DNA from: Candidatus Spyradenecus sp.
GTDB lineage: Bacteria > Verrucomicrobiota > Kiritimatiellia > RFP12 > DVOR01
Direction of reading: 5' to 3'
Assembly: GCA_051884775.1 (NCBI GenBank)
Contig: JBJEVY010000075.1
Location: 1 to 62,333, forward strand
Length of the DNA: 62,333 bases
Shown: one piece after another, positions 1,247 to 61,990 of the stretch
Layout of the letters: each line of letters starts with the position of its first letter
Position numbering within the stretch: position 1 is the stretch's first letter
Made by a program: the position numbers and the translations under genes
The notes under the pieces: generated by a model
Told to the model about the DNA's origin: nothing
Seen by the model: only the letters and a program-made list of their open reading frames with translations
Databases searched by the model: none

Positions 1247-2133
1247 ACAAGCCCTCCATCAAAGGAGCCCGAGCGGAAGCCCGCCAGATCCAGCGTCACA
1301 AAGGTGTAGCCCACGGAGCGGAGGAGATCCAGGACGCTCTCGCGGCAGTCGAGCACCGTCTGGAGGCTCTCCAGCGGCACCTCTAGGCGGGCAATCGGCA
1401 GATGGTCACGCACGCGCAGCTCCCGCACCCCGGGCAACATGCGCCGCAGCAGCGCCTCGGCAATGCCCACGCGCTCGAGCCCCTCGGCCGTAATCGCCGT
1501 GCCATAGGGGAAGCGCGTGGCCAGGCAGGGCGCGCTCGGCTTCTGCGCCACGCCCAGAGCCCACGCCGCGGCCAACGCGCGAATGTCGGGCTTGGTCAGC
1601 CCCGCCTCGGCCAAGGGCGAGAAGATCCCCAGCTCCGCCAAGGCCTTGCGTCCCGGCCGCCACCCGGCACTGTCGCCGGCGTGCGTGCCCTCCATCACTG
1701 TGGCCAGACCCTCCGCCGCGGCCAGGGTCAGCAACTGACCAAAGAGCGCGCGCTTGCAGTGGTAGCAACGGTCGGGCGGATTGGCCACCACCGCCGCGTT
1801 CTGCAAGGTGTCGATGCGTAGCAGGCGGTGGGGCACGCCGAGTTGCCGGGCCACCTCGGCCGCTTCCTCGCCCTCGCGCACCAAGTGAAAGGGCGTTGCC
1901 GCCGTCACCGCCAAGAGTTTGAAGGGCGCCTCGCGCTGCAACCGCGCCAGCGCCGCCAGAACCACCGCGCTATCCACGCCCCCCGAAAGCGCCACGAGCA
2001 CCCCGCCCGCCACGCGTCCACGCAGCACCGTCAGCAGCTTCTCAGTCGACAGTCGGCAGTCGACAGTCGGCAGGGCTGGCGCTTGGTGTGTTTGGCCCGT
2101 CTGAGCCGAGGAAACTTGACCTATCGGGTTCAT
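1243..2133 (-). CDS. larE: LarE, ATP-dependent sacrificial sulfur transferase (PP-loop) for nickel-pincer cofactor synthesis
   Basis: PP-loop ALSGGVDSAV and LarE-like length. The ATG at 2133 lies 4 nt after the larC stop. The ORF stays open to 2178 through a heptad array, so the start is somewhat uncertain. Confidence 0.75.
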   Translation of the reverse strand: MNPIGQVSSAQTGQTHQAPALPTVDCRLSTEKLLTVLRGRVAGGVLVALSGGVDSAVVLAALARLQREAPFKLLAVTAATPFHLVREGEEAAEVARQLGVPHRLLRIDTLQNAAVVANPPDRCYHCKRALFGQLLTLAAAEGLATVMEGTHAGDSAGWRPGRKALAELGIFSPLAEAGLTKPDIRALAAAWALGVAQKPSAPCLATRFPYGTAITAEGLERVGIAEALLRRMLPGVRELRVRDHLPIARLEVPLESLQTVLDCRESVLDLLRSVGYTFVTLDLAGFRSGSFDGGLV

Positions 2134-2187
2134 CTGTCTATCCGTTGTGTACGCAACTGTCGACTGTCGACTGTTCACTGTTCACGG
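2043..2187. repeat. Inverted pair of GTCGACA-type heptad arrays flanking the larC stop / larE start
   Basis: Left arm 2043-2073 is cagtcgacagtcggcagtcgacagtcggcag. Right arm 2157-2187 is ctgtcgactgtcgactgttcactgttcacgg. The inner 17 nt are complementary apart from one G-T pair. Confidence 0.85.
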
Positions 2188-3388
2188 CTGCGGCGGCTGC
2201 CGCGGCATAAACCTCCGGGTAGCCAACCCCGGCGCGATCGGCCACCGCGCGCACGCTCTCGCTTTCGGGGTAGACGCGCTCGAGCGCCCCATAGCGGCAG
2301 CACTTGGCCCGCACCGGGCCATAGGGCGTGGCAACCGTCACCGCCTCGCGCGCCATCGTGATGCGGCGGACCTTGTGGGTGCGCAGGCCGATGGTGGTGG
2401 TTTCGCGCAAGAGCACCTCAGCCAAGGCCGGCACATCGGCCTCGCGGGCCAAGGCGCGCAGGATAATCCCGGGGCGAGACTTCTTCATCGTGCAGGGCAC
2501 CAGCGCCACATCGAGCGCGCCGGCGGCCAGGAGCTTCTCGCTGGCCACGGCCAACGCCTCGCCCGTGCAGTCATCGAGGTTTGCCTCGATCTCCACCGCC
2601 TCCTCGTCCGGTCCCGAGGCCGCCTCAATCACCATTGCCCGCAACACATTCGCGCAACCGAAGTCGCGCTCCCCCACCCCAATGCCCACCTGGCGCACCA
2701 CAAAGCGTTCAGGCAGCGCCGCAGCCGTCCGCATCGCAGCGGCCAAGGCAATCCCCGTGGGCGTGACCCGCTCGCCGCGTACCGCCGTTCGCTCCAAGGG
2801 CAGGCCCGTCTTCCGGGCGATATTGAGCACCGCGGGCACCGGCACCGGTAGCTCCCCGTGCGCGCAGTGGACCGTTCCGCACCCCTCGGAGAGCGCCTCG
2901 ACCACGCACCCGGCCACCCCCAGGTCGGCAAAGAGCACCGCCGTGGCCACAATATCGGCAATCGAATCGAGCGCCCCCACCTCGTGGAAGTGAACCTCCT
3001 CCACCGCGCACCCGTGCGCCTCGGCCTCGGCCTCGGCCACCAACGCAAAGGCCGCCTCGGCCAGGGCCCGCGCCCGGGGCTCCATCGGCAGTCGCGCCAA
3101 AATCGCCTGCACATCGGCTAAATGGCGGTGGGCGTGCGCGTGACCGTGATGTGCGTGCGGCGCGTGATGCGCATCCTTCCCAAAGGCCTCCGGCAGTTCC
3201 ACCGCAAAGCGCTCACCCGCAATCCCGTGCGAGGCGGCCTTCGTCCATCCAAAACGCAACCCCTCGGCCTCCAACGGCGCCAAGGCTGCGCGGACCTTCG
3301 CCTCGCTTCCGCCCAACGCATGCAGCGCCGCAGCCAGCATATCCCCGCTCGCCCCGCAACTGCCCTCAAGGTAAAGGTAGGTGTTCAT
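2138..3388 (-). CDS. larC: LarC, nickel insertion protein (DUF111 family)
   Basis: N-terminal YLEGSCGASGDM signature and His-rich HHAPHAHHGHAHAHRH stretch. GGAGGAG SD before the ATG at 3388. The C-terminal tail (NSEQSTVDS) is encoded by a heptad array. Confidence 0.85.
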   Translation of the reverse strand: MNTYLYLEGSCGASGDMLAAALHALGGSEAKVRAALAPLEAEGLRFGWTKAASHGIAGERFAVELPEAFGKDAHHAPHAHHGHAHAHRHLADVQAILARLPMEPRARALAEAAFALVAEAEAEAHGCAVEEVHFHEVGALDSIADIVATAVLFADLGVAGCVVEALSEGCGTVHCAHGELPVPVPAVLNIARKTGLPLERTAVRGERVTPTGIALAAAMRTAAALPERFVVRQVGIGVGERDFGCANVLRAMVIEAASGPDEEAVEIEANLDDCTGEALAVASEKLLAAGALDVALVPCTMKKSRPGIILRALAREADVPALAEVLLRETTTIGLRTHKVRRITMAREAVTVATPYGPVRAKCCRYGALERVYPESESVRAVADRAGVGYPEVYAAAAAAAVNSEQSTVDSCVHNG

Positions 3389-3398
3389 CTCTCCTCCG

Positions 3399-4088
3399 TC
3401 ATCTCTTCCTTAACATCCGGCACGCTTGCGCGGCGGCACCGAAGCCATTATCGATATTCACCACGCTCACCCCCTCCGCGCAGCCATTGAGCATCGCCAA
3501 GAGCGGGGCCAAGCCCCCAAAGGCCGCCCCATAACCCACCGAGGTCGGCACCGCAATCACCGGCACCTCCACCAACCCCGCCAGCACCGTCGCCAGCGCC
3601 CCCTCCATCCCTGCCACCGCAATCACCACATCCGCGCGCCGGATCGCCTCCAGCTGCCCCAGCAGTCGCTGCAACCCCGCCACCCCCACATCATAAAAGC
3701 GCTCCACCTCCGCTCCAAAGAAGCTCGCCGTCTGCGCCGCCTCCTCCGCCACCGGCACATCCGCTGTGCCCCCCGTGCAGACCGCCACCCGCCCGCGCAC
3801 CGGCCGCTTCGCCCCCGGCAACTGAATCGTCCGCCCCACCGCCTCATAGCGCGCCCCCGGCACCGCCGCCTCCACCGCCGCGCCCAACGCCGCCGAAGCC
3901 CGCGTCCCCAACGCCGCCTGACCCGAACGCGCAAAGGCCGCAAAGATTGCCGCCGCCTGCTCGGGCGTCTTCCCCGCGCAATAGACCGTCTCGGCCATGC
4001 CCGTCCGCCTCAAACGCGCCAAGTCCAGCCGGGCGAAGTCGCCCACCTGCGCCACACCATCGGCCGCATCATACTCGCTCATCACCAA
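3399..4088 (-). CDS. larB: LarB, pyridinium-3,5-biscarboxylic acid mononucleotide synthase (PurE-like)
   Basis: AGMEGALATVLAG...VIAVPTSVGYG motif of the AIR-carboxylase-like fold. AAGGAG SD at 4094-4099. The start is ambiguous among TTG 4088, GTG 4085 and ATG 4082. Confidence 0.8.
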   Translation of the reverse strand: MVMSEYDAADGVAQVGDFARLDLARLRRTGMAETVYCAGKTPEQAAAIFAAFARSGQAALGTRASAALGAAVEAAVPGARYEAVGRTIQLPGAKRPVRGRVAVCTGGTADVPVAEEAAQTASFFGAEVERFYDVGVAGLQRLLGQLEAIRRADVVIAVAGMEGALATVLAGLVEVPVIAVPTSVGYGAAFGGLAPLLAMLNGCAEGVSVVNIDNGFGAAAQACRMLRKR

Positions 4089-4180
4089 AGAGTCTCCTTG
4101 TGCCCCATACTATCCCACATTCCACCGCCGCTTGCCAATACCTGAATTGCGAAATTAGCTTGCTCTAATAGAAGGAGGTG

Positions 4181-4189
4181 TGATACACT
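4181..4189 (+). promoter_or_regulatory. Candidate extended -10 (TGaTACACT) for pflB
   Basis: Matches the TGnTAYAMT pattern recurring upstream of other genes in this window. It lies about 78 nt before the pflB ATG. Confidence 0.35.
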
Positions 4190-4266
4190 GTGGGCACTTT
4201 CTCGGCTTGATGAGCGGCAGCGGTCGCATGGGTCGAGAGTTCACACCGAAAAACGGAGGATACGAG

Positions 4267-6504
4267 ATGTTCCAGTACCCCGCATTTAAGTCCGGCGCTT
4301 GGGAGAAGTCCATTGACGTCCGCGACTTTATCCAGACCAACTACACGCCCTACGAGGGCGATGCTTCCTTCTTGGTGGGCCCGACGGCGCGCACGCAGAA
4401 GGTGAACGCCGAGTACGAGCGCCTGCACAAGGAGGAGTTCGACAAGGGCGGCGTGCTCGATGTGGATACGGACAACGCGTCCAGCCTGCTCAATCACAAG
4501 CCCGGTTATCTGGACAAGGAAAATGAGCTGATCGTGGGGCTGCAGACGGATGCTCCGCTGAAGCGCTCGGTCAACCCCTTCGGTGGCATGCGCATGGCCG
4601 AGCAGGCTGCCGAAGCCTATGGCTATCATCTGAGCGAAAAGCTGAAGACCGAGTTTACCTATCGCACCACGCACAACGATGGCGTCTTCCGCGCCTACAC
4701 CAAGGAGATGCGCGCGCTGCGTTCGGCCCACGTGCTCACCGGGTTGCCGGACGCCTACGGCCGCGGGCGCATCATCGGCGACTATCGCCGCGTGGCGCTC
4801 TACGGCATTGACCGCCTGATCGAGGAGAAGCAGAAGGACCTCGACCAGATCGGCACCGCGCCCGATGCGATTATGGACGATGAGACCATCCGCCTGCGCG
4901 AGGATGTCTGGCGCCAGATTGACTACCTTGGCCGCTTGAAGGAGATGGCCAAGATGTATGGCATCGATATCTCCAAGCCTGCCGTGACCGCCCGCGAGGC
5001 CATCCAGGCCACGTACTTGGGCTACCTGGCCGCCATCAAGGAGCAGAATGGCGCGGCGATGAGCCTCGGCCGCACCGCCACCTTCCTGGACATCTATATC
5101 GAGCGCGACCTGGCCGCCGGCGTCCTCACCGAGGAGACCGCCCAGGAGCTCATCGATGATTACGTGCTCCACCTGCGGATGAACCGCCAGCTGCGCACCC
5201 CCGAGTATAACGACATCTTTGCCGGCGACCCCACCTGGACCACCGAGTCCCTCGGCGGGATGGGCCTCGACGGCCGCACGCTGGTCACCAAGACCACCTT
5301 CCGCGTGCTCCACACCCTCGAGAACCTCGGCCCCGCGCCCGAGCCGAATATGACCGTGCTCTGGGCCCAGGCGCTGCCGCAGGGCTGGAAGGATTACTGC
5401 GCGCACGTCTCGATCGTCACCGACTCGGTGCAGTACGAGAATGACGACCTGATGCGCGAGCGCTTTGGCGACGATTACGCCATCGCCTGCTGCGTCTCGG
5501 CAATGACCGTCGGCAAGGACATGCAGTTCTTCGGCGCGCGCTGCAATCTGCCCAAGGTGCTCCTGATGGCCATCAACGGCGGCCGCGAGGAGATCAAGGG
5601 CAAGCAGGTCGGCCCGGTGAGCGACCTCCCGGCCGAGGGCGTGCTCGACTACGAAGACGTGATGGCCCGCTACAAGAAGCTTCTCTCCTGGCTCGCGCAT
5701 CAGTATGTGAACACGATGAACGTCATTCACTACATGCACGACAAGTACGCCTACGAGAAGATCCAGATGGCCCTGCACGATACGCACCTCGCGCATCGCT
5801 GGATGGCCTTCGGCTGCGCCGGCATCTCCGTGGCGGCCGACTCCCTCTCCGCCATCAAGTACGCCAAGGTCACCCCCATCCGTAACGAAGCCGGCCTCGC
5901 CGTCGACTTCAAGGTGGAAGGCGCCTTCCCCAAGTTCGGCAACGATGACGACCGCGTGGACGCCATCGCCAAGGAACTCGCCGAGTTCTTCTATGCCGAG
6001 CTCAAGAAGACCCCCTGCTACCGCGGCGCCGAGCACACCCTCTCGCTGCTCACCATCACCTCCAACGTGATGTACGGCCGCAACACCGGCGCCACCCCCG
6101 ATGGCCGCAAGGCCGGCGAAGCCTTCGCCCCCGGCGCCAACCCCATGCACGGGCGCGACGCCTCCGGCGCCACCTTCTCCCTCAACTCCGTGGCCAAGCT
6201 CAACTACGACGCCTGCCGCGATGGCATCTCCAACACCTTCACCATCAACCCGATGGCGCTGGGCAAGGTGGAGCCCGAGCAGGTCCAAAAGCTTACCCGC
6301 TTGATGGATGGCTACTTCGTCCAGGGCGCGCACCACCTCAACGTCAATGTCTTCAACACCGACCTCCTCCGCGACGCCCAGGCGCACCCGGAGAAGTATC
6401 CGAACTTGACGATTCGCGTCTCCGGCTACGCTGTGCGCTTCATCAACCTCAGCAAGAAGCATCAGGACGAGGTCATCGCCCGCACCTGCCACAGCTGCCT
6501 GTAA
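4267..6504 (+). CDS. pflB: Pyruvate formate-lyase (formate C-acetyltransferase)
   Basis: [20 protein letters not shown]-terminus, catalytic IACCVSAM, and glycyl-radical motif RVSGYAV near the C-terminus. GGAGGA SD before the ATG at 4267. Confidence 0.95.
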
Positions 6505-6515: not shown

Positions 6516-6567
6516 CCCCTTAGAAGCGAACGGCACCGCAGTCGCGGTGCCTTTCGCTTCTAAGGGG
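6516..6567 (+). terminator. Long stem-loop downstream of pflB
   Basis: Outer stem ccccttagaagcgaa (6516-6530) pairs with ttcgcttctaagggg (6553-6567). Inner stem is ggcaccgc/gcggtgcc. There is no clear U-tract. Confidence 0.55.
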
Positions 6568-6589
6568 GATGACGGATGACAGATGAAAG
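6568..6589 (+). repeat. Heptad array (GATGACG GATGACA GATGAAA)
   Basis: Three consecutive 7-nt units directly after the pflB hairpin. Confidence 0.6.
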
Positions 6590-6640
6590 GGTGCGGACAG
6601 CGCTCTCAGTTTATCCATCGCGGCACGCGTGCTGTCATCT

Positions 6641-7448: not shown

Positions 7449-7934
7449 TTAGAAGGGGAGATCTTCGGGGTCTTGGCTCTCAGGAGCGGGCGCGGCGGCC
7501 GGGGCCGGCGCAGGGGCCGAAGCGGTGGGTGCCGCGGGAGCGGGGGCCCACTCGCTGCTGACCGTTGCTCCGCTCGTCTCGCGCCGATTGGCGTTGGGCG
7601 AGTAGAGGAACTGGACGCGGTCGGCGCGCACACGCAGTCGGCTACGCTTCTGGCCAGTGGTCTTGTCTTCCCAGGAGTCGGTCACCAGACGGCCTTCCAC
7701 GAAGACCGGGCGGCCCTTGGTCAGGTACTGACCGCAGTTTTCCGCCACACGGCCCCAGACCGTGACATCGACGTAGGTGACGACCTCGCGGACTTCGTTG
7801 GTGGCGCGCGAGCGGAACTGCTCGCTCACCGCCAGGCTCATATCCGCGACGGTCTCGCCCGAGGGGGTCTGCTTCACGTCGGGATCCCGCGTGAGGTTCC
7901 CCATCAGGAAGACTTTATTGAGGGTTGCGGCCAT
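7449..7934 (-). CDS. ssb: Single-stranded DNA-binding protein
   Basis: OB-fold N-terminus NKVFLMGNLTRDPDV, Pro/Ala-rich linker and acidic tip EDLPF. Confidence 0.95.
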   Translation of the reverse strand: MAATLNKVFLMGNLTRDPDVKQTPSGETVADMSLAVSEQFRSRATNEVREVVTYVDVTVWGRVAENCGQYLTKGRPVFVEGRLVTDSWEDKTTGQKRSRLRVRADRVQFLYSPNANRRETSGATVSSEWAPAPAAPTASAPAPAPAAAPAPESQDPEDLPF

Positions 7935-10663: not shown

Positions 10664-11620
10664 TTATGGTTGCCCGACATGGATTCGAACCATGACTATG
10701 GGCGTCAAAGGCCCGTGTGCTGCCATTACACCATCGGGCAGCGTCTGAACACATGCTCGCCAACACCCCGCCAAAGCCGGATGCCCGAGCGCCCGCTCCC
10801 CCTCCTCGCGACTGCGCACCAGCCCAAAGACCGTTGCACCGCTGCCACAAAGCGTGACCCCTTGGCAGCCGGCCGCCCGCAAAGCTTCCGCCGTCCGGGC
10901 AACCCCCGGGAAAAGCCCAAAACACGCCGCCTCCAGGTCGTTCCCGACCGCCTCAGCCACGCGCGAAACTTCTCCCGCTTGGAAAGAGAGGCGCACAGTA
11001 TCCCACAAATCATTCCCATTTGTCAACTTTTCCCCCGCCCCTCCGGCGCAATCATAGGCCCGATAAACCGCCGGCGTGGGGCAATGCGTCCCATCATTGG
11101 CCAGCACCATCCACACCCCCGGCCCAAAGGCCCCCGTCGCGCGCTCCACCACCTCCCCGCGCCCACGCATCCGCACCAACCCATCCAGCACAAACTGCGC
11201 CACGTCCGACCCCAGTTCCGCCCCCAACTCACACAACCGCTCGCGCGCCACCCCCAGCGCCCACAGCTCGTTCACCCCCCGCAACACCGTCGCCGCATTC
11301 GAGCTCCCCCCGCCAAGCCCCCCACCCAACGGAATCCGCTTGCGGATCTCCAGCCGCGTTGGCAACGCTCGCCCCACCTCCCGCTCCAAGAGCCGCACCG
11401 CCCGCACCGCCAAGTTCTGCTCCGGATCCGCCGGCATCGCCCCCAACGCCACTCCCTCGCCAACCACCGAGAGCGTCGTCTCCGCCGCGCGCGCCAACCC
11501 CACCTCATCGCACAACCCCACCGGCACCACCGCCGAATCCAACGCGTGAAACCCATCTTCCCGGACCCCAAGCACCCTCAGAGTCACATTAACCTTCGCC
11601 GGCGACAACATCTGCATCAT
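10664..11620 (-). CDS. ispE: 4-diphosphocytidyl-2-C-methyl-D-erythritol kinase
   Basis: GHMP-kinase motif KRIPLGGGLGGGSSNAA and N-terminus LSPAKVNVTLRV. The frame has no stop until 10664, so the last 25 codons overlap tRNA-Gln. Confidence 0.85.
   Translation of the reverse strand: MMQMLSPAKVNVTLRVLGVREDGFHALDSAVVPVGLCDEVGLARAAETTLSVVGEGVALGAMPADPEQNLAVRAVRLLEREVGRALPTRLEIRKRIPLGGGLGGGSSNAATVLRGVNELWALGVARERLCELGAELGSDVAQFVLDGLVRMRGRGEVVERATGAFGPGVWMVLANDGTHCPTPAVYRAYDCAGGAGEKLTNGNDLWDTVRLSFQAGEVSRVAEAVGNDLEAACFGLFPGVARTAEALRAAGCQGVTLCGSGATVFGLVRSREEGERALGHPALAGCWRACVQTLPDGVMAAHGPLTPIVMVRIHVGQP
10667..10740 (-). tRNA. tRNA-Gln (anticodon UUG), CCA encoded
   Basis: Minus-strand sequence tgcccgatggtgtaatggcagcacacgggcctttgacgcccatagtcatggttcgaatccatgtcgggcaacca. 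Cloverleaf folded by eye; anticodon loop CTTTGAC; T-loop GGTTCGAATCC. Confidence 0.9.
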
Positions 11621-11628
11621 ACCCGCGC

Positions 11629-11658
11629 AGTATAGCAAAAGGGGCGCTGGCGCGCCCC
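11629..11658 (-). promoter_or_regulatory. GC hairpin plus T-tract fused to extended -10 (TGCTATACT), 8 nt upstream of the ispE ATG
   Basis: Minus strand reads GGGGCGCGCCAGCGCCCC-TTTTGCTATACT-gcgcgggt-ATG. The same unit occurs before hisH. Confidence 0.5.
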
Positions 11659-11860
11659 GTGAACGGTGAGAGGTGAACGGTGAACGGTGAGGTGCTCGCT
11701 ACGCTCGCGTGAGGTGCCGCTGCGCGGCGTGAGGGTGGCGGCTGCGCCGCCGTGAGGGGGCGGCCTGGCGGAGCAGGCCGCTGCACAACGCTTACCGCCC
11801 TCACGCGCGCCCCTGCGCGCCTTTCCCCTTTTTGACATAACTCCTTCGCTTCGCTCGGAC
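11641..11860 (+). repeat. Composite intergenic cassette, copy 1 (heptads, GTGAGG-anchored hairpins, conserved TTGACATA..CTCCTTCGCTTCGCTCGGAC block)
   Basis: 11687-11771 is near-identical to 36877-36961. 11826-11870 is near-identical to 37061-37105. Heptads (GTGAACG/GTGAGAG) span 11659-11694. Confidence 0.85.
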
Positions 11861-12250
11861 TTGTGGTTGCTAACCTGCGTCCATTTCAGCGTGACAAGGC
11901 CTCCACAACCCTTTGTGCCCGCTGTGGTTGCTCATCCTGCGTGCGTTTCGGCGTGCTCTGTGCGTCTTTGTGGTTGCTAACCTGCGCGTATTTCGGCGTG
12001 CTCGGCGTGCGTTCCTTTGTGTTTCTTTGTGTTCTTTGTGGTTAAATCCTGCGTGTGTTTCGGCGTGACAAGGCCTCCACAACCCTTTGTGTTTCTTTGT
12101 GTTCTTTGTGGTTAAATCCTGCGTGCGTTTCGGCGTGACAAGGCCTCCACAACCCTTTGTGTTTCTTTGTGTTCTTTGTGGTTAATATCCTGCGTCTATT
12201 TCGGCGTGCTCGGCGTGCTCTGTGCGTCTTTGTGGTTGCTAACCTGCGCT
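11861..12250 (+). repeat. Family-A tandem array, about 70-bp unit
   Basis: Three near-identical 70-bp units start at 12015, 12085 and 12155 (ctttgtgtttctttgtgttctttgtggttaaatcctgcgtgYgtttcggcgtgacaaggcctccacaacc), flanked by degenerate units. Confidence 0.9.
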
Positions 12251-12263
12251 GCTTTGGGGCGCT

Positions 12264-16212: not shown

Positions 16213-17730
16213 TCACCTTTCGGCAAGGGTTAATGGGGTGTGGCCCTGACCGAAGTCGGGCCATTGGAGGAGCGTGTTGGGGTAGACCCGGCGCAGGTGC
16301 GCCAAGCGCTCGGCGCGGTCGGGCGCGGGGGCCAAGTCGGGAAAGTGAAGGGCATAGGTGTAGCCGGCCCAAGCGGCGAGCTTCGGCCCCTCGGCAGCGG
16401 GCGCAGCGCAGGGCGGGGAGAAGGGCCCCATCTCCAAGCCGCGGGGAACCTCAAGCCCGGCCTCGACCGCGAGATAGGTCTCCTGCGTCCAGACCTGGCG
16501 TTCGCCGCGCGCGGCGGCCCAGGTGCGCAGTTGCAGCCCCACGCGGCGCAGGGCCGCAAGGTCGCTCTCGGGCTTGAGGCGGATCCAAAAGCGATCTTGC
16601 GGCAGGGCCACCCAATCCTGAATGAGGGGCGAACCCAGGCAGGTGAGCGCAAGGGCGGCCGGAAGCATCACCTTGGCAAGCGCCAAGCGAAGCGAATCGA
16701 AGGGCAAGCGCGTGAAGGCAAAGGCCACCACCATCGCCAAAGGCAGGGTGGCGGGCACCTGATAATCCTCGTAGGGCACCGGCGCGCAGAGGTGCGCCAG
16801 CCCCAACGCCGCCGCGCACCAGAGCCACAGATTGGCCAGATGCTCGCGCTCGGAGGTTGCCCGCTTCAACGCCGGGCGCGCGGTCACCTGCAGCCACCCC
16901 AGCAAAATCATCCAAAAGGCGAGCAGCGGATTGAAGCGCAGCCACCGCGCCACGCACCCCGCACGCCCCAAGAGCCCCATCGGCTCGCGGGCGCTGTGGA
17001 AGCGAATCGCAGCCAGCAGCTCGGCCGGCCAGCCGATGAGTTCAGGCCCAAAGGCCGCCACCAGCCCAGCCGCCGCACCGGCACCAAACCAGAGCCACGC
17101 CCGGCGGCCCATCTGCGCGCGATGCCACCACAGCCACGCCGTCACCGCCGGCAAGAGCACGCCCATCGACAGGCGAATATCGGCCAGCAGGGCCAGAAGC
17201 GCACCGGCGGCCAACGCGCAGAGGGGGTCGAGCCCCGACCCATCGCGCCGCAACCCGGTGAGCAGCCGCAGCGCCCCGGCGATCCCCAGCGTGCAGAGCG
17301 CGTAGGTCTTGGGGATGACCGTGAAGTAGCCATACCACACATTCAGCCCCAGCAGGCACCAGAGCGTCACACGCGCAGCCCACCGTTCATCCAACCGCCG
17401 GCACCCGGAGGTGACGCAGCCATCGGCCAGAAAGAGCGCCGCCAGACCAAAGAGCGCCGTCAAGATTCGCCCGCCAAGCACACCGAGGCCCGACCACGCC
17501 CAGCCGAAGACCGCGTAGAGGAACGGGAAGAGAAGCCCTTGCGTGAAGAAGAAGTCGCGATGGGGCACCTCGCCGGCCATCATGCGCCGGGCCGCGTAGA
17601 GCCCCCACCCCTCATCTTGGTTGAGCGGCCCGAACCACACATTGAGCACGAGCATCACCACCGTCAGCCCCAGCGCGGCAAGGGCCCACCGCCGAAGCGG
17701 ATTTTGACCCGCCCCGGGTGGTGTTTTCAA
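16213..17730 (-). CDS. GT-C fold glycosyltransferase (family 39/83-like, PMT/ArnT type)
   Basis: First-loop acidic motif GPLNQDEGWGLYAARR and many TM helices. The stop lies 4 nt before the lnt start. The start is uncertain: TTG 17730, or ATG 18159 if the 198-bp repeats are translated. Confidence 0.65.
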   Translation of the reverse strand: MKTPPGAGQNPLRRWALAALGLTVVMLVLNVWFGPLNQDEGWGLYAARRMMAGEVPHRDFFFTQGLLFPFLYAVFGWAWSGLGVLGGRILTALFGLAALFLADGCVTSGCRRLDERWAARVTLWCLLGLNVWYGYFTVIPKTYALCTLGIAGALRLLTGLRRDGSGLDPLCALAAGALLALLADIRLSMGVLLPAVTAWLWWHRAQMGRRAWLWFGAGAAAGLVAAFGPELIGWPAELLAAIRFHSAREPMGLLGRAGCVARWLRFNPLLAFWMILLGWLQVTARPALKRATSEREHLANLWLWCAAALGLAHLCAPVPYEDYQVPATLPLAMVVAFAFTRLPFDSLRLALAKVMLPAALALTCLGSPLIQDWVALPQDRFWIRLKPESDLAALRRVGLQLRTWAAARGERQVWTQETYLAVEAGLEVPRGLEMGPFSPPCAAPAAEGPKLAAWAGYTYALHFPDLAPAPDRAERLAHLRRVYPNTLLQWPDFGQGHTPLTLAER

Positions 17731-18125
17731 TAGACGAGAGGCGATAGACGAGGAGGCTGTCGCCGGAGGTGGAGCGTCCGTCCGATGGACCGCCAGTTCC
17801 TCCGTCGCGGAACGCGCACTGTCGACTGTCGACTGTTGACTGTCGACTGGGCGCGCAGCGCCCCGCCCCGGGTTGACCTCGCATCCGCCCCGGGTTCGAG
17901 GTCGATCCGCCCCGGGTGAAGTTTTCGATAGGCAAGAGGCGGTAGGCGAGGAGGCTGTCGCCGGAGGTGGAGCATCCGTCCGATGGACCGCCAGTTCCTC
18001 CGTCGCGGAACGCGCACTGTCGACTGTCGACTGTTGACTGTCGACTGGGCGCGCATCGCCCCGCCCCGGGTTGACCTCGCATCCGCCCCGGGTTGGGGTC
18101 GGACTCGGGGCGGGTGCGTTTTCGG
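17711..18125. repeat. 198-bp tandem duplication (about 2.1 copies) upstream of, or in the 5' end of, the GT-C gene
   Basis: Unit 1 is 17711-17908 and unit 2 is 17909-18106, with a partial third. Each unit carries a GTCGACT heptad array (17819-17849, 18017-18047), a CCGTCGCGGAACGCGC core and three 22-bp-phased CCGCCCCGGGTT motifs. Confidence 0.9.
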
Positions 18126-18174
18126 GGTGAGGGAGGGGTGTGGGAAGGGGCTCGGCCATCGGCAGGGACCTCAA

Positions 18175-20112: not shown

Positions 20113-20118
20113 GCTCGC

Positions 20119-20207
20119 GATGACGGAAGACGAATGACAGAGAACAGAGGCCTCGGCCGATCCGTCTCGGAACGTGTCCTGTCCTCTGTCCTCTGTCATC
20201 GGTCGTC
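20119..20207. repeat. Inverted pair of GATGACA/GAGGACA heptad arrays immediately upstream of the membrane-protein ATG
   Basis: Left arm 20119-20150 is gatgacggaagacgaatgacagagaacagagg. Right arm 20174-20207 is gtgtcctgtcctctgtcctctgtcatcggtcgtc. An 18-bp stem has 2 mismatches; the core is ccgtctcggaacgtg. Confidence 0.8.
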
Positions 20208-20230
20208 TGCGCGCGTCAGCGCGCATACTG

Positions 20231-21649: not shown

Positions 21650-21672
21650 CAATCACGCCCGCCCCGCGCACG

Positions 21673-42375: not shown

Positions 42376-42405
42376 GCCCCATATTTTTCCTTGTTTGCCC
42401 CACGA

Positions 42406-42691: not shown

Positions 42692-42715
42692 TGCCCAACG
42701 GGCGCCTCCGCGCGG

Positions 42716-46700: not shown

Positions 46701-46759
46701 CGCATACCGCAATGGTCCAGTGCGCCCGCCGCTGTCATCTCTCCTCTGTCATCTGTCAT
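43718..46759 (-). CDS. Three-domain glycosyltransferase fusion (GT4-like, GT2-like, GT25-like)
   Basis: GT4: LFVLPSVFEGYGCVYAEAAACGIP. GT2: LILPAYRAARWL..CLAVDDGSPD..GFLDADD. GT25-like: YACFINLDRAPGR..GCALSHQRAY..LEDD. The ATG at 46759 has a GAGGAG SD 7 nt upstream; an alternative ATG is at 46705. Confidence 0.75.
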   Translation of the reverse strand: MTDDRGEMTAAGALDHCGMRPVDCAQPPRYLIVTQHFPSPESWRGSFVFDFVCELLRAGGYRVSVFVPGPGADYTLPLPAPLQGELTVHRFSRRALRGFILPFLFARRNCAAFLQRLSALGIDPAEVAICHAHGSPMVEYPLALKALNPRLRTLLHHHSLDDSGLAQGLLRHFAPHQRLLHRAFAKRHAQIDEHVFISRAAERAFRALPDGRWTLWGDYRRAMRCLRGLRPFTLRAASVLPNGVDPARFHPAPAAEHPFTLGCVANFVPLKDHLTLLRALRLAAPDLPAGWRLRCIGTGPTRRACERFIRRTPALRGHVTFEPERDHSALPDFFRALDLFVLPSVFEGYGCVYAEAAACGIPFLACAGQGTDDWVPPGHPSLVPPRDPAALAERLRQFLRAPWSPPAPPTLAESIGPWLARLSAPTPEPEPCDLILPAYRAARWLPDLLASLRAQSSPRWRCLAVDDGSPDATGCLLDAAARADRRFRILHTRNGGVSRARNRALDRATAPWIGFLDADDTLRPGYLAAFEALRMRHPQADLLRLRMTSLRHENYPPNFPASGCASGEALPATAWTLCAQTGWVFLYQVRRATLGSLRFAPGYAYKEDALFYSALIPHLRALAWDNLAAYDYRLTPGSALRRPRRTAELCRAFREATALWERTGRTDLGARAMTDFCWGSLTEYLRDHASESPAAIAELWREVAALTRSPLWREGVLERKFLPFLHHLLRTGNAWPLRTFTYALERWRWLRHALHCARRTWYAPPFPLAAAPLRHTLPYACFINLDRAPGRLAAMRAQLRGFPCERLRAVDGIPPGARVARFRFWLANARRLLPAEVGCALSHQRAYARFLESSATCALMLEDDICLDRARLDAALAYARTHLPADRPALWLLHGCSLTEGTPEPADFTLRPTAPRAWSAAAYLLNRPAARLLQRANAAVCVLADDWDFFRALGLEVCWLRPFPCTPSRVASSIIPPPRPRRANWAWYRALWHLRHALGSRLVRLFTPKPSCR

Positions 46760-46777
46760 CCGTCATCTCCTCTCACC
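46731..46777 (-). repeat. GATGACA/GAGGAGA heptad array spanning the ung stop, the SD and the start codon of the glycosyltransferase fusion
   Basis: Minus strand reads TGA-gaggaga tgacgga tgacaga tgacaga ggagaga tgacagc. The repeat itself contains the GAGGAG and ATG elements. Confidence 0.8.
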
Positions 46778-48657: not shown

Positions 48658-49272
48658 TCAGGCCTCCCAGGCAAGGAAGTTGCGCAAGAGTTGTTCGCCC
48701 GCGCGGCCACTGCGCTCGGGGTGGAACTGCGTGGCCACCAGCGAGCCGCGGCCGATGACCGCAGCAAAGCGCTCGCCGCAGTACTCCGTCCGCCCGAGGA
48801 TATCCGCCTCGCACGCGGGTTTGGCAAAGTAGGAGTGAACAAAGTAGAAGGCTTCACCCTGGGCGATGTTGGCAAAGAGGGGATGCTCAACGTGGTCGAG
48901 GGTGTTCCAGCCCATGTGCGGAATCTTGGCTTCGGGATCCTTAGCCGGGTCAAAGCCCACGCACGCGCCGGGAATGAGTCCGAGCCCCGCCGTGCCGCCA
49001 TCTTCTGCCGAGGTGTCCAAAAGCAGCTGCATCCCCAGGCAAATCCCCAGCACCGGCACTCCGCGCTTGACCTGTTGCGCGAGCAAGGTGTCAAAGCCAC
49101 GTGTGCGTACGCCAGCTATCCCGCTCCCGGCCGAACCCACGCCCGGGAAGACCAACCGCCCGCCCGTAAACTGCGCGGCATCGATAATCACCCGGGGCTG
49201 CTCCCCGAGTCGCTCAAAGGCCAAGCAGACGCTTGTCAGGTTGCCGGCCCCATAATCCAATATCGTAACCAT
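48658..49272 (-). CDS. hisH: Imidazole glycerol phosphate synthase, glutamine amidotransferase subunit
   Basis: ILDYGAGNL, catalytic GICLGMQLL and ATQFHPE motifs. Confidence 0.95.
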
Positions 49273-49278
49273 AGGGCT

Positions 49279-49323
49279 ATTGTAGCAAAAGCGCGCTGCG
49301 CGCGCGTGAACGGTGAACGGTGG
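49279..49323 (-). promoter_or_regulatory. Heptads plus GC hairpin plus TTTTGCTACAAT located 6 nt upstream of the hisH ATG (possible leaderless start)
   Basis: Minus strand reads CACCGTTCACCGTTCAC-GCGCGCGCAGCGCGC-TTTTGCTACAAT-agccct-ATG. Confidence 0.5.
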
Positions 49324-49460
49324 CGGCTGCGCCGCGGGGAGGGGGCCCTGCGGGCCGAGCGGTGCGGCTGCGCCGCGTAAGGCGCGTGCCGCGACAGGCA
49401 AGCTGGGGCGGCAACGGTCGAAGGGACCGAACTCCTAACGCCGCCGGGGACGGCGGCGGT

Positions 49461-52432: not shown

Positions 52433-54034
52433 TTAGAGCGCCTCGGCGGCGCAGTCGATGAGGCAGTGGGTCTTGGGATCAAAGGCCAGGCCAATGGCGT
52501 AGATGGGCAGATTGTGGCAGCGCTGCGCCTCGGCGTAGTTGCGTTCGCGAATCTGCGCAAGGGCCGCCTGGGCGCCGGTCTTGCCATCGCGATTGACCTT
52601 GAGCTCAAAGATGAAGACGGCATCGAGGAAGACGAGCACGAGGTCAGGCCGAGTCGCGGTCTGCTGACGCTCGAAGCAGACTTGCGTGGTGGCAAAGCGC
52701 GAGCGCAGGAGGCAGTAGAGGAGGCGCAGATAGGCAGCTTCGGTAATCTCGGCGCCCTCGGTGGCGTGGTAAGGCAGGTCGGCGTAAAGGACCTTGAGGT
52801 GCGCGAAGAACTCCGGGAAGTCGCGCGTGGTCAGGGCCGTAATCGTTTCGCTAAACCAGGGGTCTCCACCCGGGCGCTTGGCGATAGACTGGGTGACAAT
52901 CGTCAGCAAATCGCGCCGGACTTCCTCATCGGGGATGCCCAAGGTGTAGCCCGCCATCGGATGATAGGCCTTAATGGTGAGGTACCCGGCCTGGAAGAGA
53001 AGGGCTATGGCAGAGAGATTCGCAAGGTCACTGGCGGCCATCAAGTCTTCGGTGACCCCGGGGATATTCTCATAGTCCATCTTGACCAGCTGCTCGCGCG
53101 AGAGGTAGTTCATCAGCATCGAGGGTTTGCCGGTGGTCGACCAGGTGGGCACAAACTCCGGCTCCTGATCGGCCAGCGTATTGGAGATGGCGTAGGGGTT
53201 GTAAACGGCAGACTCCGGCCCGAGATGGAAGCGCGCGAAATGATACCCGTTATACCAGAAGCGCAGCTGCGCGCGATAGGTTTCGTAGTCCAGCCCCATC
53301 ACCTGGGCGTGAGCGGCCATCGCCTCGTGGAAGTAGGTCTCCAATTCCGCTTCGGTGTAACCCAGCAGCGTGGCGGCACGCGCGTCCAGAGTTAGGTCCT
53401 TGACGTTGTTGAGTGCCGAGAAGACCGAGACCTGCGAGAACTTCGAGACGCCGGTCATCATCAGGAAGCGAATCTTGTCGACATTCTTTTTGAGGATGGC
53501 ATAGAAGTCCGCCATCACCTTGCGCACGGCCAAGGCGAGGTCGAGGTTGTCGAGCGTATGGCCGATGGGCGCGTCATATTCATCCACGAGCACCACAACG
53601 CGCTTACCCGTGCGCTCGAAGAGCTCCTGAATGGCGTGGTCAAAGTTGCTTCCAGCCGTCTCTTGGGGGTGGATGGTCGCACCGGCAAGTTGCAACTTCT
53701 GCAAGACGGCACTTCTAAAATCCTGCTTGAACTCCTCCAGCGAGGAGGTCGAGAGTCCCGAAAAGTCGAAGCGGAAGACGGGGTGAACCGGCCAGTCGTA
53801 ATCGGTCTTGGAGATAGCCAACCCCTCGAAGAGCTCCTTGCGGCCACGGAAGATGCTCTCAAGCGTCGAAATCATCAGCGACTTGCCAAAGCGCCGCGGA
53901 CGCGAGATAAAGTAGAAGGCCGAGAGGGGGGCCGAGACGATTAAATCATAGAATGTCTGCGTCTTGTCGACGTAGATGGAATTACTTTCCCGCATCCCCG
54001 GGAAGTCATAACTCATCGTCTCAATGCGTGCCAT
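52433..54034 (-). CDS. AAA-ATPase-like domain protein with C-terminal PD-(D/E)XK nuclease-like domain
   Basis: FYFISRPRRFGKS P-loop-like N-terminus and C-terminal PDLVLV..FIFELKV motif. The start is MARIETMSYDF at 54034 with a GGAGGA SD. Confidence 0.75.
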   Translation of the reverse strand: MARIETMSYDFPGMRESNSIYVDKTQTFYDLIVSAPLSAFYFISRPRRFGKSLMISTLESIFRGRKELFEGLAISKTDYDWPVHPVFRFDFSGLSTSSLEEFKQDFRSAVLQKLQLAGATIHPQETAGSNFDHAIQELFERTGKRVVVLVDEYDAPIGHTLDNLDLALAVRKVMADFYAILKKNVDKIRFLMMTGVSKFSQVSVFSALNNVKDLTLDARAATLLGYTEAELETYFHEAMAAHAQVMGLDYETYRAQLRFWYNGYHFARFHLGPESAVYNPYAISNTLADQEPEFVPTWSTTGKPSMLMNYLSREQLVKMDYENIPGVTEDLMAASDLANLSAIALLFQAGYLTIKAYHPMAGYTLGIPDEEVRRDLLTIVTQSIAKRPGGDPWFSETITALTTRDFPEFFAHLKVLYADLPYHATEGAEITEAAYLRLLYCLLRSRFATTQVCFERQQTATRPDLVLVFLDAVFIFELKVNRDGKTGAQAALAQIRERNYAEAQRCHNLPIYAIGLAFDPKTHCLIDCAAEAL

Positions 54035-54203: not shown

Positions 54204-54212
54204 GGGAACCAT

Positions 54213-54260
54213 TAAGACTGAGTCTTATTGCAATTAAGAGTTAGTCTTATTGCAATTAAG
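54213..54260. repeat. AT-rich palindrome (TAAGACT-g-AGTCTTA) and 18-nt direct repeat AGTCTTATTGCAATTAAG x2
   Basis: Palindrome at 54213-54227. Direct repeats at 54221-54238 and 54243-54260 (22-bp period). Confidence 0.7.
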
Positions 54261-54361
54261 TCTGGCTCTTAATTATCGGACCCGGGGCTGGGCGGAATTC
54301 GCCCCGGGCGAGAAGGCGGTTTCCGCCGCGCGCGGGTTGGGGCCCGAGCGGCGAGTTCCTG

Positions 54362-58734: not shown

Positions 58735-58809
58735 GAGTGAACCGTGAGAGGTGAACGATGAGAGGTGAACGATGAGAGGTGAACGATGAGAGGTGAACGG
58801 TGAACGGTC
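58735..58809 (+). repeat. Heptad array with 14-nt super-period (AGGTGAACGATGAG x3, then GTGAACG x2)
   Basis: gagtgaaccgtgagaggtgaacgatgagaggtgaacgatgagaggtgaacgatgagaggtgaacggtgaacggtcg. Confidence 0.9.
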
Positions 58810-58843: not shown

Positions 58844-59530
58844 TTAACTCCGCGGCAGCAGGCGCACCAGGGCCGCCCCGCGCTCGGCAATCGGCAGGCG
58901 GATGCGCGCGTCCCAACCTACCGCTTCGTCGCGCTGCTCAGGGAGGCCATCCGCCGCCGAGAGCACATCCATCGTGGCGAAGGGCCGCTCCCCGGGCAAC
59001 GCCTCAATTAGGTCCGCCGCGCGGAAGGTCAGCACCGCCGGCTTCCCGCACGGCAGCACGAAGGCGCCCATCGTGTAGCTGCCATCGACTTCGCGCAGGC
59101 CAAACTGCAAGAACCACCCCGGCTCGCCCCGCCGGCACCAACGCGCCTCCGGCGCGCAACGCAACATCCGCAGCAGCGCGGCAAAGGTTTCGCGATAGAG
59201 TGGCGAGAAGCCGCCCGAGGCGTCCAACATCCACGCCCCCTGCGGACAGAGCGGCATCTCCCGGAAGGCTGCGAAGAGCACCGCCTCGGCGCTCTCCAAC
59301 ACGCGCGGCGAGGCTACGGCCTCGGGGTCCGCCGCCTGGCAGAGCAGCGCGGCCGGCGAAGGGACCTGCCGCTCGACCACGCACCCATCGGCGCGCCAGT
59401 AGCGCAGCGCCGTCCGCCCCTGCGCCGTGAAGTAGAGATTGACGGGCAAGCGCTCGCGGGCATCCAAAACTGCCCCCGTGCCTGCCCGTCGCGGAACGCG
59501 CCCTGTCGACTGTCGGCTGTCGACTGTCAT
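58844..59530 (-). CDS. Hypothetical protein (228 aa)
   Basis: The ORF follows the S1-domain gene stop by 3 nt. The first 10 codons (MTVDSRQSTG) are a heptad array. No motif was recognised and the start is uncertain. Confidence 0.45.
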   Translation of the reverse strand: MTVDSRQSTGRVPRRAGTGAVLDARERLPVNLYFTAQGRTALRYWRADGCVVERQVPSPAALLCQAADPEAVASPRVLESAEAVLFAAFREMPLCPQGAWMLDASGGFSPLYRETFAALLRMLRCAPEARWCRRGEPGWFLQFGLREVDGSYTMGAFVLPCGKPAVLTFRAADLIEALPGERPFATMDVLSAADGLPEQRDEAVGWDARIRLPIAERGAALVRLLPRS

Positions 59531-60870: not shown

Positions 60871-60880
60871 GCGCGTAGTG

Positions 60881-61444: not shown

Positions 61445-61521
61445 CGCCTCTGCCTCCGCAACGCGCTCCCAAAACAAGAAAAGGCCGCCCTTCGGCAGCC
61501 TTCCATCTCAACCTTCTTAAC

Positions 61522-61612
61522 TGGCGGAGAGGGTGGGATTTGAACCCACGGTACCCATAAAGAGTACACAAGATTTCCAGTCTTGCGCCTTCGACCACTC
61601 GGCCACCTCTCC
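61522..61612 (-). tRNA. tRNA-Ser (anticodon GGA), long variable arm, CCA encoded
   Basis: Minus strand reads ggagaggtggccgagtggtcgaaggcgcaagactggaaatcttgtgtactctttatgggtaccgtgggttcaaatcccaccctctccgcca. The anticodon loop is CTGGAAA. Confidence 0.9.
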
Positions 61613-61628
61613 GTAAAGAAGTGCGCAC

Positions 61629-61637
61629 ATTATGGCA
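61629..61637 (-). promoter_or_regulatory. Candidate extended -10 (TGCCATAAT) for tRNA-Ser
   Basis: 16 nt upstream of the mature tRNA 5' end. Confidence 0.45.
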
Positions 61638-61692
61638 CAACCCTCCCCCAAAAAGCAAGCACTTTTTGCGCACGCCTGCGAAATACACGCTG

Positions 61693-61990
61693 GAGGTGAA
61701 CGGTGAGAGGTGCTCGCTGCGCTTGCGTGAGGGTGGCGGCGGCGCCGCCGAGAGGTGCGCCTACGGCGCGTGAGGTGGCCCTGCGGGCCGTGAGGCGCTC
61801 GCTGCCGCTCGCGAGAGGGGCACCTTCGGCGCGCCGGGGGCCACGCCCCCATGCCCCCGCCCACGAGCAAGCTCATGGGCACGCCGGGCCGCGCCGCCTT
61901 TGGCGGACGCGTGGGGTTGCCGAGGACGGCGGCACACAGAACACAGAACGCCCGGCCTAGATAGCCCTTCAGGCAGCAGACCCACCACAC
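61693..61990 (+). repeat. Heptads (61693-61712) followed by GTGAGG-anchored GC hairpin modules
   Basis: gaggtgaacggtgagaggtgctcgctgcgcttgcgtgagggtggcggcggcgccgcc... parallels 11683-11771 and 36877-36961. Confidence 0.75.

Follow-up and report, generated by a model that had tools for sequence, protein, structure and literature searches.

Positions 1 to 62,333 of contig JBJEVY010000075.1, together referred to as the window, belong to a relative of Candidatus Spyradenecus, a lineage of the Lentisphaerota (PVC group) that metagenome-assembled genomes (MAGs) have documented in the chicken gut, and carry tandem arrays of 7-nt units (heptads) between its genes. Its G+C content is ~65%. A gene map based on Pfam scans and a codon-usage model gave 44 genes, with 86.6% of the window coding. 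All but one lie on the minus strand (43/44), the sole exception being the plus-strand pyruvate formate-lyase (PFL) gene, and gene sense below means the minus strand for these 43 genes. Arrays were detected with Tandem Repeats Finder (TRF) and our own X-drop period scan, with Markov-1 random sequence as the control, and their units were sorted into five types, A to E. Sister-genome sequences set against the window are labeled L001 to L004, L529 and L532 to L535; the sister genomes show 89-91% nucleotide identity and are syntenic with positions 30.8-50.2 kb. Rfam at gathering thresholds returned only two tRNAs in the window and no known RNA family at the arrays. A simple scan for sigma-70 promoters and terminators gave no useful signal (3 promoter-like sites versus 1.9 expected), so promoter assignments relied on inspection by eye, backed by conservation.

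The initial annotation had listed 27 array starts, and all 27 carry head-to-tail 7-nt units, with 2.4 to 17 units per array; TRF returned the same arrays as the period scan. The latter found 26 period-7 runs where 1.6 were expected, and zero runs in the window at periods 4, 5, 8 and 11 at a stricter threshold. The longest arrays start at 35417 (17 units), 58737 (~10) and 36822 (8.6), and four sites are weak, namely 61693 (~2.5 units), 49306 (2.4), 6568 (3) and 20119 (4 degenerate units). The unit families agree with those first listed, and the proposed G-N-N-R-A-C-R superfamily holds in part: GTCGACA, GCNGACA, GAKGACA and GCTAACA (types B, C, D and E) all match G-N-N-R-A-C-A, GTGAACG of type A matches the consensus loosely, and its companion GTGAGAG does not match.

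The arrays lie at gene boundaries and in both orientations, as had been claimed. The intergenic 13.4% of the window contains 883 of the 952 array bases (93%), arrays make up 10.6% of all intergenic DNA at a density of ~1 per 2.3 kb, and Pfam-covered coding DNA (44% of the window) overlaps none of the 27 arrays (P ~1e-7). That nearly every long spacer is occupied overstates this density, as 14 of the 20 spacers of at least 100 nt (~70%) hold an array, plus three shorter ones. A location mostly 5' of minus-strand genes is true but trivial, because 43 of the 44 genes are on that strand. All eight type A arrays share one orientation, as do seven or eight of nine arm-core modules (see below). The same spacers hold arrays in more than 10 independent assemblies (NCBI, ENA, Logan), differing in unit number and sequence, and this recurrence at orthologous sites shows that the arrays are not an assembly artifact. 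Short-read contigs frequently break off inside arrays; proteins identical to those of the window occur in one other sample only (SRR30616791), whose contigs end within arrays.

Palindromic modules and single arrays

Types B (GTCGACA), C (GCNGACA) and D (GAKGACA) typically make one module, which reads in gene sense as a 5' arm (GACAG), the core GCGCGTKCCGCGACGG, a variable interior, a 3' arm (CTGTC) and often the junction CGAGCGTAGCGAGC, the arms following the formula GNNGACA(n) and TGTCNNC(n). At mnmA, the 5' B arm (31404-31433, -) separates the stop of gene 31433-32401 from the core (31388-31403, -), and the 3' B arm (31317-31345, +) consists of GTGAACA followed by three GTCGACA units, or CTGTCGA in gene sense; together they form a perfect 17-bp stem (z score of -4.0). 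The core at this site includes a Shine-Dalgarno (SD) sequence, GGAG, 6 nt before ATG 31379. Between larC and larE, the 5' B arm (2156-2185, -) reads GTGAACA twice and then GTCGACA twice, and the 3' arm (2043-2073, +) is built of GTCGACA/GTCGGCA units (gene sense CTGTCGA). The C-type element of the NIF3-exchanger spacer has a 5' arm of four GCNGACA units running into a core variant (39428-39460, -; fold z of -6.6), a 3' arm of 4.6 CTGTCNG units (39246-39277, +) placed 14 nt upstream of the Na/H exchanger gene's SD, and an extra internal 3' arm (39322-39346, +) seen in the window only. In the membrane-protein gene 18175-20199, a degenerate D-type 3' arm (20119-20146, +; gene sense CTCTGTY/ATTCGTC/TTCCGTC) lies in the N-terminal extension, and the 5' arm (20179-20209, -; GATGACA followed by two GAGGACA) provides the in-frame ATG 20199 (fold z of -5.7).

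In total, five inverted pairs fold into stems of 20 to 30 bp without a U-tract (z of -4.0, -4.1, -5.7, -6.6 and -4.8), which lends weight to the suggestion that the arrays act through RNA or DNA structure. A sixth, weak pair is not significant (z of -0.2): the D array at 6567-6586 (+; GATGACR three times), 3' of the rpsF-ssb-rpsR-rplI operon and convergent with the PFL gene, is accompanied by a partial inverted partner and a core copy. A G-U wobble test of the folding strand gave one case each way, and column-wise covariation of the arms is inapplicable because B- and C-type elements are not positionally homologous.

The core follows the 5' arms and occurs in four exact copies (also at 17802-17817, 18000-18015 and 59486-59501, all -), two to three near copies (20162-20177, -, 3 mismatches; 6615-6630, -, 2 mismatches; and the variant at 39416-39431, -) and one inverted copy (49382-49397, +, 1 mismatch). 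It is lineage-specific; its one match outside the lineage, in coding DNA of the unrelated metagenome contig L088, was dismissed as chance. Reading it as a sigma-54 promoter on the opposite strand was likewise rejected, as the GG-GC spacing is wrong. The junction (39232-39245, -) follows 3' arms or precedes A arrays; it has 12 matches against 3.0 expected, five of them exact, with further copies at 11694-11707, 31301-31314, 31347-31360 and 36885-36898. A 34-nt interior module, CGGCTCAGACGGGYYAARCACAYCRAGCGCCAGC, precedes the larE 3' arm (2075-2108, -) and recurs at 39278-39311 (2 matches versus 0 expected) as well as in L003 and L004. Interiors are otherwise mostly unrelated between elements.

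Further B, C and D arrays stand in more varied settings. A B array at 17818-17849 (-; 4.6 units of GTCGACA/GTCAACA, then the core; self-fold z of -5.2) lies in copy 1 of a 198-nt tandem duplication, and its duplicate (18016-18047, -) in copy 2. The duplication (17706-18101, 92-94% identity) is a multiple of 3 in length and lies in the open frame of open reading frame (ORF) 16213-18174; each copy holds a B array plus core, and ATG 18159 or ~17661 are candidate gene starts. Another B array (59503-59528, -) starts with GATGACA, continues with GTCGACA/GCCGACA and ends at a core; its first unit provides ATG 59530, the database-called start of gene 58844. The D array at 46732-46768 (-; three GATGACR plus GAGGAGA) fills the UDG-glycosyltransferase spacer, with candidate ATGs inside. 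A C array of 7.4 units (41576-41629, +) sits between an intrinsic terminator and the promoter of a GFO oxidoreductase gene (-35 TTGCCT, 17-nt gap, -10 TAATAT), 11 nt upstream of the -35 box. Two shorter C arrays, at 29257-29276 (+; 2.9 units of GCGGACA) and 30008-30026 (+), lie in the first and second copies of a 145-nt direct repeat (29241-29385 and 29991-30135, 95% identity). These repeats flank a DUF3800 gene fragment (~29490-29893, plus strand, low G+C) in the 1.2-kb spacer upstream of a giant gene, an arrangement suggestive of an insertion, or of repeat modules having captured a decayed gene between them.

Types A (gene sense CGTTCAC/CTCTCAC) and E (gene sense GCTAACA) form single arrays that fold weakly (z of +0.6 to +1.3). 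The 17-unit E array (35417-35535, -; GCTAACA/GCTATCC) occupies an entire stop-to-ATG spacer, contains TAA in each unit, has a z score of +0.8 and ends 6 nt before ATG 35410. The A array of ~10 units at 58737-58808 (+; gene sense CGTTCAC/CTCTCAT; z of +1.3) ends 4 nt before ATG 58732, which an independent gene call also uses. Neither ATG has an SD, nor does ATG 20112, which likewise begins 4-6 nt past the end of an array; most well-defined starts in the window do have one. A second E array (30260-30284, +; GCTAACA/GCTAGCA) marks the 3' end of mnmA. Among the remaining A arrays, that at 29216-29243 (+) consists of three GTGAACG plus GTGAGAG, that at 30156-30190 (+) has GTGAACG and GTGAGAG alternating, that at 42647-42683 (+; five units, gene sense CCGTTCWC) directly follows a terminator-like hairpin of a methyltransferase gene, and 2.4 units at 49306-49322 (+) form the end of a 67-nt module.

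Several A arrays terminate longer mosaic spacers, in which ~70-nt CACAAAGAA-rich repeats are followed by 20-22-nt units (small hairpin plus CCTCAC), heptads, a GC hairpin with a T-run and a TGnTAYAAT promoter. Such composite modules stand upstream of the ispE operon (array 11659-11690, +, GTGAACG/GTGAGAG, gene sense CGTTCAC; promoter TGcTATACT), an aminotransferase gene (36822-36881, +, 8.6 units; promoter TGcTACAAT) and tRNA-Ser (a remnant of ~2.5 units at 61693-61710, +), and, inverted and without heptads, upstream of surA. The distal repeats, rich in CACAAAGAA/CTTTGTG with a period of ~70 nt and containing the block GGCCTTGTCACGCCGAAA, lie at 11990-12260, 37060-37160 and 61900-62333 and inverted at 21650-21900; 12014-12208 holds 2.8 copies of 96% identity, and copy number varies in relatives (L533, L534). 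The 20-22-nt units, each a small GC hairpin (e.g., GGCGGCgcaGCCGCC or GCGCCgaagGGCGC) followed by ACCCTCAC, are found at 21924-22069 (7 copies), 11687-11764 and 61748-61795. They pass straight into A heptads (CACCTCAC, then CGTTCAC), which suggests that A units were seeded from the CCTCAC tail. Extended -10 promoters of the TGcTACAAT and TGcTATACT type at ~49260-49300 and ~11620-11650 lie merely 6-8 nt upstream of the ATGs of a hisH-like gene and ispE, so that leaderless mRNAs are predicted for both; the promoter at 49290 is conserved in L001.

Whole-unit turnover and the reading frame

In untranslated spacers, arrays differ between sister genomes by whole units in steps of 7, 14 or 35 nt (one, two or five units), in line with the earlier suggestion that they are prone to slippage. 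The E array at 35417, which is untranslated because every unit contains TAA, spans 109, 74, 86, 67 and 32 nt in five genomes (15.6, 10.6, 12.3, 9.6 and 4.6 units). Divided by 7, four of these five spans leave a remainder of 4; the steps in unit number are not divisible by three, and two alleles are separated by a 14-nt gap. Similarly, the exchanger 3' arm measures 33 nt versus 26 nt in two genomes.

Arrays and elements were also gained, lost or exchanged. At the 7.4-unit C array upstream of the GFO gene, L533 has a single CTGTCCG, and L001, L534 and L535 have no C heptads at all, with TTTCCGGRN 9-mers in their place; the TTGCCT-17 nt-TAATAT promoter is conserved throughout despite these changes. 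Such 9-nt tandem repeats (CCGGACTTT/TTTCCGGRN, 4-7 copies) occur in the window at 36986-37025 and in the relatives at L001 ~7600-7670, L534 ~235-290 and L535 ~4225-4290, where they take the promoter-upstream position of the C array. The A array at 36822 is present in the window only, beside a CACCTC seed, and absent from L001 and L533 to L535; that at 42647 is absent from L001. A segment of the window (41694-42715) comprising a PEP-CTERM gene, a 22-nt repeat of 4.2 copies (42406-42497) and this A array is missing from L001, L533, L534 and L535, in which the methyltransferase-GFO distance is 220-370 nt. The 67-nt A module with the array at 49306 is a clean indel relative to L001, with a 5-nt ACGCG microhomology, and the entire NIF3-exchanger element is absent from L535. 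In this spacer, both arms are of C type in five genomes and both of B type in two (L001, L002); the interiors are non-homologous between the two groups, which identifies the switch as a cassette replacement and not as compensatory substitution. An upstream ORF through the exchanger 3' arm, seemingly conserved in two genomes, was rejected, as L533 no longer has its TAG stop and L534 shows a 7-nt difference in the arm.

A different pattern was found where arrays are read through as N-terminal extensions. In mnmA, the nearest canonical start ahead of the conserved IGVAFSGGVDS is ATG 31379. The 90%-identity cluster of MnmA has 17 members from different MAGs; all 15 alleles examined are in the same frame and carry mosaic N-terminal extensions of 27-78 amino acids (aa), and the sequence ahead of the three "short" gene calls is likewise open in this frame. 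In more distant MnmA proteins, just 7-25 aa precede the SGGVDS motif. Heptads are read here as PVDCRLST (CTGTCGA three times; the 3' arm of the window), CLLSAVRCPL (GCTGTCY four times) or SSVIRHP, and variants with +7 and +14 aa of SSVIRHP-type translation correspond to three and six units. At least ~8 module-level indels in the extension are all multiples of 3 nt, which under neutrality would have a chance of at most ~1e-4 by our estimate.

The larE gene belongs to a larB-larC-larE operon for nickel-pincer cofactor synthesis (1243-4088) that adjoins the PFL gene. Its database gene call starts at ATG 2133, 4 nt past the larC stop (TAG acag ATG), and the palindromic heptad element spans this junction. 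The 3' arm of L532 is 21 nt shorter, and its protein P0136 lacks 7 aa (PTVDCRL) in an otherwise identical N-terminus. On the other side of the junction, the 5' arm is read as the C-terminal tail of LarC, which has 416 aa in the window, ending ..AAVNSEQSTVDSCVHNG, versus 404-405 aa in relatives, ending ..AAVNS. This arm shows a 7-nt indel relative to L532, in which a GTTGACA unit makes a TGA stop; the tail holding the 5' arm is unconstrained. For gene 18175, relatives start at an ATG within the D-type 5' arm (MTEGRGQDAFRDG..), matching the in-frame ATG 20199 of the window, and L529 has 21 additional nt at the 3' arm, its P0156 being 7 aa longer than P0155. The called start of gene 58844 likewise lies in a GATGACA unit. 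The predicted N-terminal peptides begin MADLPCASEASPVDCR.. in MnmA, MNPIGQVSSAQTGQTHQAPALPTVDCR.. in LarE and MTEDRGQDTFR.. in the product of gene 18175. As a separate observation, a peptide module ..GEKPGL..CPSR.ALP.YRLSPIE.. is in frame in P0131 (MnmA) and P0159 (a homolog of gene 18175), that is, in the N-terminal extensions of two unrelated genes from other Spyradenecus genomes; read-through thus extends to repeat modules that are not heptads.

Translated arrays are short (3-4 units), and the only differences seen between coding arrays are 21 nt, or three units. The initial remark that 7 nt do not make whole codons therefore needs qualifying, as this period does not exclude arrays from ORFs: in N-terminal extensions they persist and change in 21-nt steps. 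We read the contrast between steps of 7, 14 or 35 nt and steps of 21 nt as the mark that a reading-frame filter leaves on a slippage-prone repeat and, judged by the 15 in-frame MnmA alleles, the frame of translated arrays is under purifying selection.

Origin of the arrays and precedents

Taken together, the arrays are probably hypermutable heptanucleotide repeats of the kind known from cyanobacteria as short tandemly repeated repetitive sequences (STRR), partly housed in modular palindromic boundary elements and filtered by reading-frame selection. On this model, arrays would arise in place from single proto-units and then grow or shrink by whole 7-nt units, for which slipped-strand mispairing would be the simplest cause of the indel pattern. 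Many arrays would represent the two inverted arms of modular palindromic boundary elements, with CGTTCAC and GCTAACA standing as single arrays in mosaics. Selection would act chiefly as a filter that keeps arrays out of conserved protein cores: in untranslated spacers they could drift freely by one, two or five units or be lost, and in the read-through extensions of mnmA, larE and gene 18175 only three-unit (21-nt) changes would survive. Secondary effects on mRNA structure and translation starts are probable. Single arrays, which are not self-complementary, may give weakly structured C/A-rich leaders abutting SD-less starts, and the intercistronic stems of inverted pairs could affect how mRNA is processed, how stable it is or how translation is coupled. 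Nothing points to a dedicated operator or regulator system.

Several points weigh against this explanation. Pure random slippage does not predict that only five related unit families occur, and some module dispersal or sequence preference must therefore exist. The shared orientation of A arrays and arm-core modules hints at a strand-specific role or mechanism, although, with 43 of 44 genes pointing the same way, the bias cannot be told apart from an effect of replication direction. The positions of several arrays are conserved in five to eight genomes, which could reflect function rather than shared ancestry, and slippage, transcription and translation are all deduced from sequence comparisons.

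Heptanucleotide repeats of this general kind are well documented, contrary to the statement in the initial annotation that no such bacterial class had been described. Cyanobacterial STRR are intergenic heptanucleotide tandem repeats that include hairpin-forming pairs between hupS and hupL; their function is unknown, with transcript stability or translational coupling proposed (PMC2670836). In Xanthomonas (GGGAATC) and Nostoc (GGGGAYT), hundreds of intergenic arrays of 2-26 units, some in inverted pairs, occupy the same spacers in sister species while differing widely in length and sequence, and polymerase slippage was proposed as their origin (PMC4692102). TAACTGA arrays of Beggiatoaceae, cyanobacteria and Bacteroidetes abut start codons and replace SD sequences, show indels in 7-nt increments between strains, neighbor genes without a common function and comprise 169 direct sets versus one indirect (PMC4679880). 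More generally, heptameric simple sequence repeats are over-represented in many bacterial genomes, with slippage again proposed (as cited in PMC4692102 and PMC4679880). We found no paper on repeats in Lentisphaerota.

With STRR, the window shares tandem 7-nt units dispersed in spacers, few unit families per genome and inverted hairpin pairs between cistrons. It differs in phylum (Lentisphaerota, ~65% G+C), in its dominant units, in the core and junction modules beside the arms and in the translated N-terminal residence with 21-nt steps. STRR units include CCCCAGT, TTGGTCA and CAACAGT, and a minor unit of the window, GTCAACA/CTGTTGA, is a circular permutation of the last. The window arrays and STRR are thus alike in kind but do not belong to one sequence family. 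Xanthomonas and Nostoc arrays resemble those of the window in occupying the same spacers in sisters, in length differences and in inverted pairs; they are G-rich and were studied as G-quadruplex formers, whereas the window units lack G-tracts, and no core or junction modules or coding residence were reported for them. The position of TAACTGA arrays a few nt before SD-less starts compares with that of arrays 35417, 58737 and 20119, but there one unit dominates and indirect repeats are rare, whereas the window has several units and many inverted pairs. Each single feature has precedent; what had not been described is this set of units in this lineage, its shared modules (core and junction), its density (~10 times that reported for other genomes) and the clean contrast of 21-nt and 7-nt steps.

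Heptad arrays of many sequences are widespread. A metagenome scan gave at least 120 GACAG-heptad loci; among the matches listed, G+C ranged from 21 to 74%, many had inverted pairs and some were typical cyanobacterial units. Control cores were similarly common in viral contigs (GAGCA at least 120, GCAAG 91, ACGAG 72), and the idea of GACAG as a special biosphere-wide signal was rejected.

Selected RNA-level elements and mobile palindromes are alternatives that partly overlap with STRR-like repeats. In the former, to which we give perhaps a one-in-four standing, inverted pairs would be selected intercistronic stem-loops, serving as RNase III/exonuclease barriers or in translational coupling, and selection would maintain single arrays as unstructured leaders that need no SD, or as standby sites, which a periodic single-strand binder might recognize (Csp, S1 or CsrA, an idea put forward for TAACTGA). 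It accounts well for the strong stems without U-tracts, the joint switch of arm type on both arms, the order GACAG arm, core, CTGTC arm that all five pairs show when read along the transcript, the weak folding of single arrays and the three that stop 4-6 nt short of SD-less ATGs, and like ideas were proposed for STRR and TAACTGA (PMC2670836, PMC4679880). Complementarity of the arms, on the other hand, is not maintained at variable unit positions, L535 does without the whole element, sister genomes lack arrays or carry replacements, the type switch brings a non-homologous interior with it, and some arms are translated, which would melt the stems.

Somewhat less plausible is a non-autonomous family of mobile palindromes, like MITEs (miniature transposable elements with inverted repeats) or Rickettsia palindromic elements (RPEs), for which the heptad arms would be terminal inverted repeats at gene boundaries that expanded secondarily, with insertion sometimes in frame and sometimes donating an SD and ATG. 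A composite spacer module in both orientations, and presence/absence and cassette replacement at orthologous sites speak for it, as does in-frame residence in three or four genes, which is also known for RPEs (PMC10969869). Inverted arms, a core in 6-8 copies, the 34-nt module in two and a shared junction may count in its favor too, with interiors otherwise unrelated. As short modular palindromes at gene boundaries, sometimes in frame in housekeeping proteins and polymorphic for presence, RPE, MITE, BOX and REP-BIME elements are indeed similar (PMC10969869), but the arms in the window are tandem heptads that change in length, and interiors are poorly conserved between copies. Moreover, no target-site duplication was recognized, the sole candidate being the ACGCG microhomology at one indel; Pfam scans of the window ORFs showed no transposase or RAYT gene; and an array could be born from one local unit without any element. 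A bolder version, which we regard as speculative, is that heptad-armed palindromes are self-propagating "start cassettes" that insert at gene 5' ends with their own SD and ATG, as in the core GACGGAG-N6-ATG of mnmA or the GATGACA first units at genes 18175 and 58844. If so, the ancestral start would decay and the cassette become the obligatory translation start of a housekeeping gene, whose expression and N-terminus would be tuned in three-unit steps; a periodic single-strand binder might then recognize the ACAG that recurs at 7-nt intervals.

Cooperative DNA-binding arrays, operators of the omega or ribbon-helix-helix (RHH) type or nucleoid-protein sites regulating adjacent promoters, are unlikely. 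The initial annotation had drawn the analogy to the omega operators of pSM19035, which also consist of 7-bp units in direct and inverted orientation; moreover, three units would make two helical turns, the 41576 array ends close to a -35 box, and extended -10 promoters lie shortly downstream of A arrays. The analogy has no support here: the units do not match WATCACW, only TCAC of the type A reverse complement being shared; Pfam scans of ~50 window ORFs detected neither an RHH nor an Omega_Repress domain, nor any other small DNA-binding protein; plasmid context and conserved promoter overlap are missing; and arrays turn over rapidly at ~90% identity, being gained, lost, swapped, reduced to a single copy or replaced by 9-mers next to conserved promoters. 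Many, in addition, lie in co-transcribed or translated sequence, and the neighboring genes are unrelated housekeeping genes.

Equally improbable, if not slightly more so, are phase-variation contingency loci, in which unit slippage would switch or tune genes as in neuO or hmw; the latter has 7-bp repeats in its 5' region. Unit number does differ between genomes, and a one-unit change in the 5' coding extensions of mnmA, larE or gene 18175 would shift the frame, just as the translated N-terminal heptads of neuO keep frame only in multiples of three units. In Escherichia coli K1, however, the AAGACTC repeat in the 5' coding region of neuO is a true phase switch with arrays of 3-53 units, 65.6% of genomes being out of frame (PMC13001214), versus none of 15 MnmA alleles; this argues against an ON/OFF switch, and the genes affected are housekeeping genes, not surface or host-interaction genes.

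After decades in the literature, bacterial heptanucleotide repeats still lack a known function (PMC2670836, PMC4692102). The lineage offers a dense natural experiment on them, with more than 10 sister genomes, in which one repeat class meets three selective settings, namely untranslated spacers, promoter-upstream DNA and translated N-terminal extensions, and the contrast of step sizes gives a direct read-out of mutation against selection. In practice, the arrays break short-read assemblies and shift predicted gene starts, and annotators should expect repeat-encoded N-terminal extensions; they may also serve as strain-typing markers for gut Lentisphaerota.

A few features of the region stand apart from the heptads. 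Long poly-C/poly-G tracts in sister MAGs (L001 18441-18487, L002 540-670, L535 ~9985), located at contig ends and inside one ORF, may be assembly noise or real homopolymers. A 2300-aa ORF (22150-29052) without a Pfam match has an unusual positional G+C (GC1 0.55, GC2 0.55) and is preceded by the 1.2-kb repeat-rich spacer. Upstream of an AAA-ATPase/PD-(D/E)XK gene (52433-54034), the AT-rich 22-nt repeat ATTAAGACTGAGTCTTATTGCA (54211-54271, 2.8 copies, with internal palindromes) is adjoined by ACCTCGGGCGG blocks and a CCCCAATTGGGG palindrome pair.

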